Positions 317-49,711 of a DNA stretch of 49,711 nucleotides are shown in pieces (position 1 is the stretch's first letter; each line of letters starts with the position of its first letter). The notes beneath the pieces are model-generated. The model was not told the origin of the DNA. It saw only the letters and a list, made by a program, of their open reading frames with translations, and did not search any database. The stretch spans positions 1 through 49,711 of the forward strand of contig JBDHZC010000011.1 of assembly GCA_039811685.1 (NCBI GenBank). The letters run 5' to 3'. The translations under genes and the position numbers were made by a program. Source of the stretch: Armatimonadota bacterium. GTDB lineage: Bacteria > Armatimonadota > UBA5829 > DSUL01.

Positions 317-670
317 TTATCGTAGCCTCACACTGCCAAATGTAAAAACTATTACAAGGCTAAAAACGGCATAAAACGCCGCCAACATGCTGAAACCAAC
401 CGCCAAAATCCCGTATATTCCAGCGAGCAGACCGCGCACCCTCAGTTGTCTGGCCACGATGAATGCCCCAATAGCTGCCGCCAGCGCCGCAGTCCCGGCA
501 ATGTACAGTCCAACAGGCAGTTGGCGCTCCAAAGCACCGGATACTCTCGGCGACGTGCCAGCCAGCATGAAATCGAAGATCGGGACAACTGCCATTCCGA
601 CTGCTAGCCAAGAAAGCAGAAAAGACACGACGATAAGAAGAGACAAGGTTAACCGACCTACAAATTTCAT
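317..670 (-). CDS. Small multi-pass membrane protein (hypothetical, ~117 aa)
   Basis: ORF 317..841 re-started at ATG 670 (MKFVGRL) after AGAGAGG RBS. The upstream part of the ORF runs through repeat/IS DNA. About 3 hydrophobic segments. Confidence 0.7.
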   Translation of the reverse strand: MKFVGRLTLSLLIVVSFLLSWLAVGMAVVPIFDFMLAGTSPRVSGALERQLPVGLYIAGTAALAAAIGAFIVARQLRVRGLLAGIYGILAVGFSMLAAFYAVFSLVIVFTFGSVRLR

Positions 671-720
671 TACAACCTCTCTAATGAGTAATCCATGCGT
701 CAACCCATACATCAAGTGTT

Positions 721-851
721 TGATACTGCGGTGGTCAAAAGCCTCTGGGAATGACCGGTCCTGAATGCAGAAGCCGCCAAAACATAATGACATAACGGGA
801 ATGGCACACTCCTCAGGCCTCTCGTCCTCTACCGAACTCAATTCCCGCAGC
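721..851. repeat. Family C palindrome (GCTGCGGGAAT...ATTCCCGCAGC) interrupted by an IS110 remnant
   Basis: Removing 732-796 and one GG restores a near copy of 46010-46076. Confidence 0.9.
732..796 (-). mobile_element. 65-nt left-end remnant of the IS110 element
   Basis: Reverse complement equals 48132-48196 except the first two nt (GT vs TA). Flanked by CC on both sides on the minus strand (730-731, 797-798). Confidence 0.92.
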
Positions 852-878
852 TACCTCTAACGCCTCGTGAACCACCGG

Positions 879-23290: not shown

Positions 23291-24436
23291 TCAGGCCGCC
23301 TGTTTCACTTTTTTCGCAGGCCGCGCCAGCGCATGGTAGGGCATGAACAGGAGGATAGCTACAACATTGAACATGCCGCCCCATTCCCGGGCCAGTGGCA
23401 GGCTCGCCAGGTCTCCCACAATTCTCAACACCAGTGAGCCGTGCAGAATCGCGAGATGTCCGTAAAGCAGGGGAGAGTAGCGGGCGCCGGTGGTCTCAAA
23501 GACCGCAGGAAAAATGATCGGCGCGTGCGCAAAGACCATTGAGATGACGTAGCCCAGGAAGAACGTATGCAGAAGCGCGTCGTAAATTGGCCCGCTTACG
23601 ATTGGACCGGTTATCATCCAGACAAGCCCCGTAACAATCAGCCAGCCGTACCCTATCAGCAGCGCAACCGCGATGAAGCGTGACAGGCCCGGCACACGCA
23701 CAGACCGCCTCGCCATGTCAAACAGCAGCAGCCAGACCCCTGCGGCCGCTGCGCACGCTCCGGCAATGCGCGTACCTATTACCCACTGCGCGCTGACGAA
23801 CGCGTTGCCAAAACGCGTGAACGCGACTATTCCTCCGCCTGCCTCCACTGGCGCGCTGAGTGTCCACAGCGCCATAGCGACGAAAGTAATGAGAACAGCA
23901 GCAAACAGCGTACGCAGGATTGGGCGCACACTCATCATGCGGCTGAGCTCCAGGCGCTCCCCGGAGATCGTCAACAGTAGAAACCCTATCCAGAATGGAA
24001 CCACAGCCGGCACTGCGCGGTGTTGCGCCCACGCGATGTTGCCCACAAGCCACGTCACAACGCCAATGAGCATCACGACATTGTGAAGCGCGCGCTGTAG
24101 ATGGACGATAAAAATGAAGTTCGCAACCAGACACAACGATCCCGCCGTGATGAGGAGTCTGGGAATTAGCGACGCGGGAGCGAAAACCAGTGTCACCGCT
24201 CCCGCCGCAGTTAATATCGGAGCCAGAAACGCCCACGGCCTCTTCAGGGCTGCCGCGCGTTCCAGGCTGATCAGCGTGCCGAGAAAACCGCTGACCATCA
24301 GCGGCCCATGGGCATCCACCAGAAAAGGACTGGGCGCCCCAAAGCGCCAGCCGAGGCGTATAAGCCCGGCATACATGCCCATGATCAGCGCCAGCCCACC
24401 GCCCGCGGACAGCACAAAGCGTCCGATGCGCCGCAT
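23291..24436 (-). CDS. Polytopic membrane protein (NnrS-like)
   Basis: HGPLMVSGFLGTLISLERA, GERLELSR, YDALLH, FAHAP; start uncertain. Confidence 0.75.
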   Translation of the reverse strand: MRRIGRFVLSAGGGLALIMGMYAGLIRLGWRFGAPSPFLVDAHGPLMVSGFLGTLISLERAAALKRPWAFLAPILTAAGAVTLVFAPASLIPRLLITAGSLCLVANFIFIVHLQRALHNVVMLIGVVTWLVGNIAWAQHRAVPAVVPFWIGFLLLTISGERLELSRMMSVRPILRTLFAAVLITFVAMALWTLSAPVEAGGGIVAFTRFGNAFVSAQWVIGTRIAGACAAAAGVWLLLFDMARRSVRVPGLSRFIAVALLIGYGWLIVTGLVWMITGPIVSGPIYDALLHTFFLGYVISMVFAHAPIIFPAVFETTGARYSPLLYGHLAILHGSLVLRIVGDLASLPLAREWGGMFNVVAILLFMPYHALARPAKKVKQAA

Positions 24437-46631: not shown

Positions 46632-46856
46632 TTCCATCCCTCCAGGTTTCCCCAACCTGGAGGCCAAACGCCGTACTCATAGTCTCACCTACCGCTGAGT
46701 GCGTCAAGGCTGAGGCTTTGGTCCTGCGGGCTTCTTGATGCTGCGGGAATGCCGCACTCCTCATGTCTCCTGGAACCTCAGGCTCGAAAACGGCCGAACC
46801 TCCTCGCCCGCGTTTTAGATCCCGCCAGGTTTCCCAACCTGGAGGCATCGAAATGC
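46632..46856. repeat. A hairpin - C left arm - A hairpin cluster
   Basis: A at 46632-46663 and 46819-46845; GATGCTGCGGGAATGCCGCACTCCTCATG from 46737. Confidence 0.85.
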
Positions 46857-46862
46857 TTCCTC

Positions 46863-47945
46863 TCATTTGCGCGTCAGCGCCTCCATCAGCCGTGGGTTAA
46901 AGAACAGGCGCTCGCGCCCCACCTTCGTGCCTGCGAGAATGCCGATGCGCTCGAGTTCGCGCAGGTATTCGGATGCCGTGTTCCTGCGGGCAATGCCCGC
47001 GGCCTCCACCAGCCCAATGCGGGTGTAGGGTTGCGAGAACACCATATCCAACAGCTCCCGGCTGTACCCCTTCCGCATTCCGGACCTGGCCATTTCGGCG
47101 GCCTCATCTATGGCTCTGCGAACGGAGCGCAGCATGGCCCTTGTCATAACGGCGGTTTCCTCAATCGCCCGGAGCATGTACAGAATCCATTCCTCCCACG
47201 CATCCGCCTCCGTCACCGCCCGCAGGCGCTCATAATACTCGGACTTGCTGGGGACGATGTACCAGCTCAGGTACAGCACAGGCATCTCCAGCATTCCGCT
47301 CTGCAGCAAATAGAGGATGTTCAACACACGCCCCGTGCGCCCGTTGCCATCGGGAAACGGATGGATGGCCTCGAACTGGCGATGTCCGGCAGCCATCTTG
47401 ATGAGAGGATCAATGCCGTCGCCAGCCGCGAGCCATCCGCACATGACGTTCAGCATGTCGAGGATCCGATCACGCCCAATGGGCGGCGTGTACACCACCT
47501 CGCCCGTCCTGTCGTTGACGATCCGGCATCCCTCGCCGGAACGGACGTCCGTGTCTGCTCCCTTTATGCGACGGGCGAGATCAATGAGCAGCGACGGGCG
47601 GATGGGGCGTCCCTCGCGCAGATCCCGGTACCCCGCCCACAGCGCCTCGCCGTAACGCAACACCTCACGGGTGCGCGGGTCGGCCGCCTCGGGGCGCTGA
47701 TCAAATGCCCGGTAGAGGGCATCGTTGGTGGTAACGACATTCTCGATCTCCGAAGACGCGCGCGCCTCCTGCAGCAGGATGGCGCGAAGCAGCACCGCCT
47801 GGTTCGGGACGAGATCGCCGCCCGCATTCAACTCGGCCAACACCCGGTTTGCGGGTATGGCCGCCTTCAGTGTTCGGGCGGTCTCCAGCCTGTCCGCCGC
47901 GGGAATCGGAGGCAGATAGTTGTAGGGCCGGTTACGGTCGAACAT
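46863..47945 (-). CDS. Fic/DOC family adenylyltransferase with C-terminal HTH
   Basis: HPFPDGNGRTGR catalytic motif; SSEIEN inhibitory motif; GAGG RBS before ATG 47945. Confidence 0.93.
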   Translation of the reverse strand: MFDRNRPYNYLPPIPAADRLETARTLKAAIPANRVLAELNAGGDLVPNQAVLLRAILLQEARASSEIENVVTTNDALYRAFDQRPEAADPRTREVLRYGEALWAGYRDLREGRPIRPSLLIDLARRIKGADTDVRSGEGCRIVNDRTGEVVYTPPIGRDRILDMLNVMCGWLAAGDGIDPLIKMAAGHRQFEAIHPFPDGNGRTGRVLNILYLLQSGMLEMPVLYLSWYIVPSKSEYYERLRAVTEADAWEEWILYMLRAIEETAVMTRAMLRSVRRAIDEAAEMARSGMRKGYSRELLDMVFSQPYTRIGLVEAAGIARRNTASEYLRELERIGILAGTKVGRERLFFNPRLMEALTRK

Positions 47946-48148
47946 GCACGCACCTCGTGGGTTTTGCCCCATTATACACGCGCAGAGCCCAAGACGCGTG
48001 CATATTATGGCCATCCGCACGCGCTGCGTGCATTTTTTTCATCCCTCCAGGTTTCCCAACCTAGAGGTTCTGTATGCTGCGGGAATATCGGTTTCCAGTC
48101 ATCCATCACGCTGGTGGGCCTCGTCATTCCCTATATGTCATTATGTTT

Positions 48149-48298
48149 TGGCGGCTTCTGCATTCAGGACCGGTCATTCCCAGAGGCTTTTGACCACCCG
48201 CTGCGGTCTGTCCGTTTGCAGATGAGTGTGAGTACCGATGGAGAGTTGTGCTTCGAGCACCGATATAGGGACGCATCACGCCTCGAGAGCAGCCGCCA
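48149..48298 (+). ncRNA. IS110 bridge RNA (target-binding and donor-binding loops)
   Basis: Closing stem TGGCGGCT/AGCCGCCA; LTG 48173-48181, RTG 48200-48206, LDG ~48240-48247, RDG 48263-48269. Confidence 0.88.
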
Positions 48299-48312
48299 GG
48301 AAAGGGAAGACG

Positions 48313-49494
48313 ATGAACTTCGTTGGGATTGATTGGGCAGACCAGACCCACCGTTTGTGCATACTGGGTGATGAAGGGCAGCGCCTGGAGAGTTTCGAGA
48401 TCGCTCATGGCCGTAAGGGCTTTGAAGCCGCCCACAGCAGGATCGCCAGGCACGGCACACCTGATGCCACAAGGATCGCCATCGAGACCAAGGACTCGCT
48501 GCTGGTGGACTTTCTTGTTGAGCTTGGCTACGCGCTGTATTTCGTGAACCCCAAACAGACGGATCGCTTTCGCGACCGCCACAGGATGAGCCGCTCCAAG
48601 TCTGACGCCTTCGACGCTTTCGTCCTGGCTGACGCGGTCAGGACGGATCATCAGTTGTTCAATGCGCTGTCGCCGCTAGACGAGACGAGCCTGCAACTCA
48701 GGGTCCTCACACGTTCGAGGGAGGGGCTTGTTGGCAGGAAAGTTGCGGTGCACAACGAGATCACCTCACATCTGAAACGCTACTTTCCGGTGGCGAGTGG
48801 GCTGTTCGGCGGACTAGACAACGCCGCGGCCATCGCTTTCCTGCTACAGTATCCGACCTTGGAGCAGGCAAAGACAGTATCGCAGGCCAGGATCACTGCC
48901 CTCCTGATCAAGGAAGCCAGGGTCACACCGGCCATTGCCGTCAGGCACGCCACCAGGGCACGCGCGCTTCTCTCGGAGCCCCAGGCTGCAGCCAGCTCAT
49001 CTGTTACCCGAGCCTATCCGGTAGCGGTACAGTCACTGCTACGTCAGTTGAAAAGCATTCTGGCTGAACTGGAAGCGCTGGACCGGGAGATCGCCTCGAT
49101 CTACGACCACCATCCGAACAAAGAGCTCCTTCAATCTTTGCCCGGGGTGGCCGAGACGCTGGGCCCCGTGCTCGCAGCTGAGCTGGGGACAGACGTTACC
49201 CGCTTTGTCAATCTGAGAGGCCTGAAGGCTTTTGCCGGAACCAGCCCTGTCACCGTGCAAAGCGGCAAGCATCGCAGCGTCCACATCCGGCGCGCGTGCA
49301 ACCAGCACCTCAGACAAGCGTTACACATGGCCAGCCTTGTAGCTGTGAGAATAGCCCCCTGGGCGAGAGAACTTTTCGACCGGCTGCGCAACGAGGGCAA
49401 GACCTACGGCCGCGCCCTGAGAGCTGTAGGCGAGCAACTCCTGGAAATACTCTATGTCCTTCTCACGCGCCGGACACGCTATGACGAGGGCTAG
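48313..49494 (+). CDS. IS110 family recombinase (DEDD RuvC-like plus Transposase_20)
   Basis: FVGIDWA, IAIE, KSDAFDA, LQSLPGV, FAGTSPVTVQSGK; AAGGGAAG RBS. Confidence 0.96.
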   Translation: MNFVGIDWADQTHRLCILGDEGQRLESFEIAHGRKGFEAAHSRIARHGTPDATRIAIETKDSLLVDFLVELGYALYFVNPKQTDRFRDRHRMSRSKSDAFDAFVLADAVRTDHQLFNALSPLDETSLQLRVLTRSREGLVGRKVAVHNEITSHLKRYFPVASGLFGGLDNAAAIAFLLQYPTLEQAKTVSQARITALLIKEARVTPAIAVRHATRARALLSEPQAAASSSVTRAYPVAVQSLLRQLKSILAELEALDREIASIYDHHPNKELLQSLPGVAETLGPVLAAELGTDVTRFVNLRGLKAFAGTSPVTVQSGKHRSVHIRRACNQHLRQALHMASLVAVRIAPWARELFDRLRNEGKTYGRALRAVGEQLLEILYVLLTRRTRYDEG

Positions 49495-49604
49495 CATATG
49501 CGGATGAAGGCGTTGCACGGCAGCATAATCGCAGCCCGAGTTTGACATAGAGAGTCCGCAGCATCTGAGGTTGGGAAATCTGGAGGCGTGAAAATATTCG
49601 ATCT

Positions 49605-49711
49605 TCACGGCAGGGAGTCCCCTCCAGGCAGGTCTGCCCAGCGAGGAGTGTACACCTGCGTGCGGCCGCTCTTCAGCCAGCGCACCATCACGCTTTGCGG
49701 GGGAACGGTGG
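49605..49711 (-). CDS. 3' end of a minus-strand gene entering from outside the window
   Basis: Open frame ...VMVRWLKSGRTQVYTPRWADLPGGDSLP* stops 10 nt from the repeat end. Confidence 0.35.
   Translation of the reverse strand, partial: TVPPQSVMVRWLKSGRTQVYTPRWADLPGGDSLP

Follow-up and report, generated by a model that had tools for sequence, protein, structure and literature searches.

The bridge recombinase system of IS621 and the IS110 family was reportedly described by Durrant et al. in 2024, and REP/BIME-type repeats are the class of intergenic repeats used for comparison with the targets considered here. The bridge RNA of IS621 has a two-loop layout (Hiraizumi et al. 2024, PMC11208158), and the sections of that paper drawn on here describe top-strand cleavage downstream of the core as well as handshake guides that read two bases to the left of the core (PMC11208158). 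IS621 also recombines at sites that match no guide arm (27 of 168 in a re-analysis; preprint 10.64898/2026.08.31.748434), and a 2025 preprint proposes a 'direct transfer' that involves only the top strand, in which the step at the left junction comes first and is efficient, whereas the one that follows at the right junction is inefficient. ISPpu9 modules and solo copies of ssr9 reside in REP sequences of Pseudomonas putida (PMC12288879).

The locus analysed here lies in a 49,711-nt stretch of DNA (hereafter, the window) from an uncultured member of the Armatimonadota, and consists of 65 nt (positions 732-796, minus strand) that are a dead left-end stub of an IS110-family element, the only full copy of which occupies positions 48132-49555 (plus strand) of the same window. 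In the features taken from these sources, the parent element resembles IS621: it encodes DEDD and Tnp domains and has a left-end leader with two internal loops, in each of which the 5' guide is same-sense to the left arm and core and the 3' guide is antisense to the core and right arm; it carries a dinucleotide core at both ends and is inserted into palindromic intergenic repeats. It differs from IS621 in its CC core (CT in IS621), in its uncultured host from the Armatimonadota and in a leader with no Rfam match; moreover, unlike active IS621, the object itself is a 65-nt stub. With ISPpu9, the stub has in common the occurrence of partial IS110-family pieces alone in REP-type targets, but the pieces described for ISPpu9 have functional ends, form circles and occupy several sites (PMC12288879), whereas the stub lacks the right-end arm and is single. 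In our search of the literature, we did not come across any left-end stub described as stopping precisely at the right-end core, and one preprint, in the portion of it consulted, explicitly filtered out such remnants (10.64898/2026.08.14.744561).

The full copy is flanked by CC cores at 48130-48131 and 49556-49557, within a type B unit of the target repeat (48073-48131 and 49556-49564), and its ends read CC-TATATG...GAGAGT-CC-GCAGCAT. The recombinase gene (48313-49494, plus strand) codes for 393 aa that comprise an N-terminal DEDD (RuvC-like) domain (DEDD_Tnp_IS110, PF01548, residues 4-159, E 2.4e-35) and a C-terminal Tnp domain (Transposase_20, PF02371, residues 271-354, E 1.2e-18). As expected of an IS110-family element, there are no terminal inverted repeats, and the CC core is found at both junctions. 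Homologues were identified in 3 of the 40 other genomes searched, namely G002 (same family, 92% identity), G004 (same family, 67-68%) and G037 (same class, 67%), and these have the same ends and CC core. In the home assembly (G000; 3.42 Mb, 15 contigs, 97% complete), tblastn detected no second recombinase gene; the other matches were the start of the gene in a fragment on contig C5 and a right-end fragment on contig C1. The C5 fragment (23685-23955, minus strand; 271-nt alignment) is a second left-end remnant that covers element bases 1-262 with 100% identity and starts with CC-TATATG; a partial type A unit precedes it, its other end borders the start of a different repeat family (TCA-GGTATTTCGGGATTTGAGGG), and inverted copies of this family bracket the remnant as a whole. 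The C1 fragment (213576-213851) is a right-end remnant of 276 nt with 2 mismatches that ends in GAGAGT-CC-GCAGCAT, its left breakpoint being within the recombinase gene. A gene of the Fic family (Fic_N, Fic and SoFic-like_C domains; 46863-47945, minus strand) stands alone between repeat clusters and adjoins the full copy. Hybrid circle-junction promoters have been reported for other IS110 elements; in the inferred circle junction of this one (49541-49557 joined to 48132-48145), TTGACA is seen by eye 17 nt upstream of CATTAT, a candidate hybrid promoter.

Upstream of the recombinase gene is a bridge-RNA-like leader (48146-48301, plus strand), in which the alignment of 5 homologues predicts an outer stem around a target-binding loop and a donor-binding loop. 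The predicted consensus structure has the expected two internal loops of a left-end RNA: besides the outer stem, it has two further stems, each with an internal loop, the first also carrying a small distal hairpin and the second a GUGCU-UCG-AGCAC hairpin, and 12 of its 36 predicted pairs show compensatory changes. Folded as a single sequence, the leader is no more stable than shuffled sequences (z 0.02). A search of Rfam 15 over 48000-49711 (E <= 1) yielded no relevant match from a library that may hold no bridge-RNA model; two sub-threshold matches, to a microRNA model and a snoRNA model, were dismissed as chance. The left target guide, CGGTCATTCCC (48171-48181, plus strand), has the same sense as the left arm of the target and the core. 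The right target guide region (48199-48209, plus strand) includes GCTGCGG (48200-48206), the reverse complement of the core and right arm, CCGCAGC. Between them, directly preceding the right target guide, is an internal CC (48197-48198, plus strand) that forms the base of the distal hairpin on its 3' side; it is here that the stub ends. The donor guides, GGAGAGT and ATATAGG (48263-48269), were compared by eye with the element ends AGAGAGT and CC-TATAT.

Guide assignment can be assessed from the match of each guide to the flanks of its own element, core included. The full copy in G000 matches over 9 nt on the left (GTCATTCCC) and 7 nt on the right (CCGCAGC); where a side is present, the same lengths are found in the fragments, 9 nt for the left of C5 and 7 nt for the right of C1. 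The two copies of the G004 element match over 8 nt each on the left and over 10 nt (L004) and 8 nt (L006) on the right, and the G037 element over 7 nt on both sides; at one further locus (L011), the left match is shifted by one C and the right one spans 8 nt. The G002 element shows a weaker correspondence (6 of 8 positions on the left, 4 nt on the right). For the G000, G004 and G037 elements, complementarity between loop guides and flanks thus extends over 7-10 nt per side. The flanks of the stub match the same guides over 7 nt on the left (CATTCCC) and 6 nt on the right (CCGCAG). Because the guides match their own flanks lineage by lineage, guides and flanks co-vary, and the stub sits at the predicted site. 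In G004, palindromic-ended units (L004, L006, L035) have the ends TGTTTCGGGATTT...AAATCCCGAAACA, and the guides of the IS110 relatives there are altered to fit (GAAATC-CC-GAAACA). As read from these sequences, the difference between the G004 and G000 guides is best described as natural guide retargeting between sister genomes. Overall, the parent has the features of a bridge-RNA-guided IS110 element for which we looked, apart from a match to a curated RNA family, and is predicted to be one.

The target repeat consists of intergenic units of about 66 nt with 13-nt inverted ends, ATGCTGCGGGAAT...ATTCCCGCAGCAT, that occur in clusters. There are 17 distinct units of two internal types, A and B, and ATTCCCGCAGCAT is found 20 times in the genome, against 0.1 expected from composition. 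Two of these units are interrupted at the CC of the right arm, one of type A by the stub and one of type B by the full element. Like REP/BIME sequences, the units are palindromic-ended, intergenic and clustered, but the genome lacks a RAYT match (Y1 transposase, PF01797; 0 matches in the 97%-complete assembly, with the control positive in 6 of 14 named genomes), and the units are REP-like by form only. Two other repeats share this environment. A second family of about 100 nt (GGTATTTCGGGATTTGAGGGTTGGAC ... CTCCAACCTGGAAATCCCGAAA) has 18 matches in the genome, including those at 146, 285 and 1052 of the window (minus strand), and many of its copies have CTGGAGAGT-like loop motifs that resemble the right end of the element (AGAGAGT) and the left donor guide (GGAGAGT). 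A short hairpin repeat, CCTCCAGGTTGGGAAACCTGGAGGGATG, accompanies the palindromic-ended units (46640-46670, 46830-46860, 48040-48070, 49565-49595 and 880-915).

On the minus strand, positions 807-721 read GTGCCATTC-CC (798-797)-GTTATGTCA...TTTTGACCA (796-732, 65 nt)-CC (731-730)-GCAGTATCA. The 65 nt correspond to bases 1-65 of the element and are identical to it at 63 of 65 positions; the sole differences are at element bases 1-2, which are GT in the stub and TA in the full copy. The CC at 797-798 (minus strand) is the left core, where the left arm of the target joins the element. The CC at 730-731 (minus strand) is the deletion junction, and can be read either as element bases 66-67 or as the right-end core. 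Positions 799-855 (minus strand) are the left part of the interrupted type A unit (GCTGCGGGAAT...GTGCCATTC), with the left arm of the target at its end, and positions 723-729 (minus strand) are the right arm, GCAGTAT (GCAGCAT in the family consensus). The segment 796-851 of the window aligns to a type A unit with 91% identity. Excision of the 65 nt together with one CC gives CCATTCCCGCAGTAT, which differs from the family consensus CATTCCCGCAGCAT by one C-to-T change. Because this excision restores the repeat consensus, the right edge of the deletion coincides to the base with the boundary between element and target.

Of the leader, the stub retains the 5' halves of two stems (outer and target-loop), a copy of the left target guide (747-757) and the distal hairpin; the right target guide and donor loop are gone, as are the recombinase gene and the right end. 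In the 5-homologue alignment of the leader, element bases 66-67 are columns 95-96, and the right-guide strand occupies columns 97-107, immediately 3' of them. Judging from this anatomy, the stub can make neither a bridge RNA nor a recombinase and has no right end, and is predicted to be immobile. The earlier note had described an independent insertion at the same CC core in another copy of the repeat, broken between the two target guides with the left one kept and the right one lost. Identity by blastn, alignment to the type A unit and the guide/flank matches agree on the insertion and on its occurrence at the guide-predicted target; the break between the guides is borne out by the leader structure and the same matches, and the coordinates, including those of the internal CC in the full copy, proved correct. 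The stub is a clean second, independent insertion at a guide-predicted site of an undescribed IS110 element from the Armatimonadota, and supports the guide assignment.

The stub is located in a 515-nt intergenic region rich in repeats. Upstream is a gene for an ABC-2-like membrane protein (1186-2490; 3 Pfam matches with E of about 1e-4 to 6e-6, all just under the curated cut-offs), and downstream a hydrophobic ORF of 117 aa that starts at ATG 670 and has no Pfam match. A longer ORF of 174 aa (317-841, minus strand) crosses the stub and the repeat unit from a TTG start, but this upstream extension is probably non-coding, ATG 670 being the likely real start. A scan for promoters and terminators over 560-1100 returned 0 sites, with no sign that the stub gives the downstream gene a promoter.

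The stub could have been created in assembly, by a chimeric join of the left end of the element into a repeat. Repeats break such assemblies, and the window is a whole contig that ends 150 nt past the full element, but the contigs of public sequencing runs argue to the contrary. The stretch or a part of it is present in 19 listed runs from 12 studies, mostly metagenomes of sludge and wastewater, and contigs of 4 runs from 4 studies (X1, X2, X6 and X9, of which X1 may be the source sample of the assembly) carry the stub. Its left junction (796/797) is spanned by at least 31 nt on each side in 3 of the 4 runs (X1, 730-1280; X2, 730-854; X6, 765-865), and its right junction (731/732) in one (X9, 300-802), whereas the records of the other three cross it but extend just 28 nt into the stub. 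No empty site, in which a joint bypasses the 67 nt, appeared in the contigs of these 4 runs, which tend to drop rare variants and may have missed a minority of empty sites, and alternative letters at 795-796 were likewise absent from the 4 runs. We therefore treat the scar as genuine and an assembly artefact, which the earlier note had allowed for, as having a negligible chance of being the explanation.

The two-base difference at the start of the stub admits another interpretation, namely that the stub derives from a sibling IS110 element that starts with GTTAT and has the donor guide ATAACGG, or else is a mobile mini-element. The sole point in its favour is this difference itself, at element bases 1-2 in positions read by the right donor guide, and the searches run against it. 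Queried with its flanks against the whole assembly, blastn placed the stub at three sites, namely itself, the full copy and the C5 fragment, and query bases 5-78 aligned to window positions 48125-48198 and to C5:23953-23880 (each 74 nt with 2 mismatches, E 7e-32). Accordingly, the pattern CC-NN-TATGTCATTATG occurs three times in the genome (full copy, C5 and stub) and the right junction, TTTTGACCACCGCAG, only once, where a mobile mini-element would be expected in several copies. Nor does the stub have both ends: the bases ahead of its right CC are TTTTGACCA, not the right end ...ATAGAGAGT, and with that end the left arm of the donor is missing. The single full recombinase gene in the 97%-complete assembly goes with the guide ATATAGG.

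Searches in other genomes gave the same picture. Element bases 3-20 (an 18-mer) matched 13 loci in 185,579 species genomes, none of them starting with GTTAT; 11 were unrelated AT-rich matches, and 2 were left ends of the G002 element, both with TATAT. In metagenome contigs, a GTTAT left end was found at 0 loci, and a broader left-end pattern at 3, all of the G002 type and with TATAT. The pattern of the predicted sibling guide, ATAACGG, had 1 match in the species genomes (L045), which lies in coding-like DNA of a gammaproteobacterial MAG without bridge-RNA features and was judged to be chance, about 4 chance matches being our estimate for a 19-mer in 596 Gb; in the home genome, with up to 2 mismatches, it hit just the resident ATATAGG (full copy and C5). 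Of what the earlier note had proposed here, the two-base difference between GTTAT and TATAT stands, but the sibling IS does not, there being no GTTAT left end in the genome, the species genomes or the metagenome contigs; neither full GTTAT copies nor a right donor guide ATAACGG was found, and a mobile mini-element or a recurrent route of inactivation is not supported, the stub being single. A single copy without a GTTAT sibling is also the contrary outcome that the earlier note had named in advance. The stub is a one-off, not a family, and its derivation from a sibling or a mini-element is highly improbable.

No model considered here accounts for the GT itself, which counts against the favoured reading given below. 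Both changes lie beside the left core, in positions read by the right donor guide ATATAGG, and the C5 remnant retains TATAT there; that the only two changes cluster at this place by drift is unlikely. The handshake guides of IS621 do not offer an explanation, because those guides read bases to the left of the core and GT lies to its right. Given that GT falls in positions read by the donor guide, the stub is now probably a poor substrate for the living copy. By way of speculation, the loss may have followed a change that put an end to normal excision, or the change may have been favoured later by stopping recombination with the living copy.

How the remainder of the element was lost has to be read from the right junction. 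The junction microhomology is exactly 2 nt (CC). With the left breakpoint held fixed, 1,480 alternative right breakpoints are available, 243 of them with at least 2 nt of microhomology and several with 5-7 nt, and the element contains 98 other CC dinucleotides to the right of base 67; the chance of landing on the exact boundary is estimated at about 0.2-0.4% (1 of 243 to 3 of 1,480). The product, GACCA-CC|GCAGT with exactly two Cs, is what would be expected if both top strands were cut 3' of CC, the cleavage position described for IS621, and exchanged. Because the right junction is exact to the base with a mere 2 nt of microhomology, we favour the view that the element's own machinery fixed this junction, by aberrant excision or by truncated insertion, with a probability of roughly 0.55.

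Under this favoured reading, a parent copy entered the right arm of a REP-like unit at its CC, the site set by both target guides, a step that we count as established, and a single event would then have joined element bases 66-67 (CC) to the right-end core CC. The loss would amount to 1,359 bp and one copy of the core, covering everything from the right target guide to the right end, donor loop and recombinase gene included. One possibility is an aberrant excision, in which the recombinase cleaved the top strand on the 3' side of the right-end core and linked it to an internal CC that is not a legitimate partner; alternatively, an insertion intermediate may have been truncated, and, by analogy with 'direct transfer', a truncated insertion of that kind would give the architecture of the stub as well. 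The half-match and no-match recombination of IS621, of which the former requires one matching arm (10.64898/2026.08.31.748434), suggests how the recombinase could have acted at the right-end junction on a partner that has the core alone in common; in the portion consulted, that preprint is concerned with assays of insertion and excision rather than with self-truncation. The internal site, TTTTGACCA-CC-CGCTGCG, is unlike all four arms read by the guides (GTCATTC, AGAGAGT, GCAGCAT and TATATGT), which counts against the favoured reading. Because it matches no arm, a guide-directed or half-match reaction is unsupported, and just a no-match event would fit. Also against it, the argument from precision rests on a single coincidence (n = 1), and host deletions evidently do truncate these elements, as the other remnants described below show.

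The principal alternative is an ordinary host deletion, by replication slippage or illegitimate recombination, in an inserted copy, that by chance ended at the right-end core and was perhaps followed by point changes. The lack of guide complementarity at the internal site speaks for it, as does an imperfect block, CCGC(T/A)G, common to the right-guide DNA and the flank, but a crossover within that block would leave three Cs, whereas the stub has two, and the microhomology between CCGCTGC and CCGCAG that the earlier note had considered as a cause does not account for the junction. Moreover, the sites with 5-7 nt of microhomology on offer were not used, the exact boundary is rarely expected among the alternative breakpoints, as estimated above, and additional mutations at the junction would be ad hoc, given that the other 63 bases of the stub are unchanged. 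The fate of other left-end remnants is a precedent for such a deletion: in this clade, all five of those whose right junction can be seen have the appearance of ordinary or microhomology deletions. None of them ends at the right-end core, which sets the stub apart and counts towards the favoured reading. The C5 remnant ends against another repeat; two remnants in G002 (C90 and C28) end in unrelated DNA and a third (C118) ends after about 30 nt; and a remnant of about 69 nt in G004 (C1:743018) ends in left-guide DNA and joins another repeat via CCCG microhomology. Balancing these considerations, we regard a host deletion as a serious contender that falls well short of being probable.

Several candidate parallels and routes were examined and set aside. 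The stub of about 69 nt in G004 is not a second example, because its right side is the other repeat, reached via CCCG, and not the right-end core. The C5 remnant might appear to end at an internal mimic of the right end (GGAGAGT), but the adjoining repeat family usually starts with TCA-GGTATTT and the junction is ambiguous. Two apparent solo right ends in G002 (C39 and C8) are both at contig ends and represent assembly breaks. By reasoning, an inverted repeat of right-guide DNA against the core and right arm would yield an inversion or another deletion, and a nested insertion at the internal copy of the left guide would leave a stub of 48 nt, not 65 nt. The remnant on C118 of G002 (L037, about 1414-1451) is a 30-nt left-end stub of a G004-type element at the end of a G000-type unit (ATGCTGCGGGAAT...GTCAATTCC), and its junction has one C fewer than expected.

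Altogether, the finding is mostly ordinary apart from one precise, unexplained junction, and this base-exact right junction with 2 nt of microhomology is its sole point of wider interest. A more specific version of the favoured reading, to which we give not quite an even chance, is that a bridge recombinase acting in the absence of a guide match left the stub as a natural footprint: the enzyme would have cleaved at the right-end core of its element and linked this core to an internal CC unrelated to it, or an intermediate of top-strand insertion would have been trimmed back as far as a CC able to pair next to the right arm, so that the element truncated itself, with GT then barring recombination with the living copy. 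Recurrence of such stubs in other IS110 lineages would show that bridge recombinases cut their own elements short at non-cognate core dinucleotides, and self-truncation, if shown, would bear on the off-target behaviour of these enzymes as tools for genome editing. If true and general, this reading would make base-exact left-end stubs recognisable as a product of IS110 elements and turn them into a natural record of off-target chemistry.
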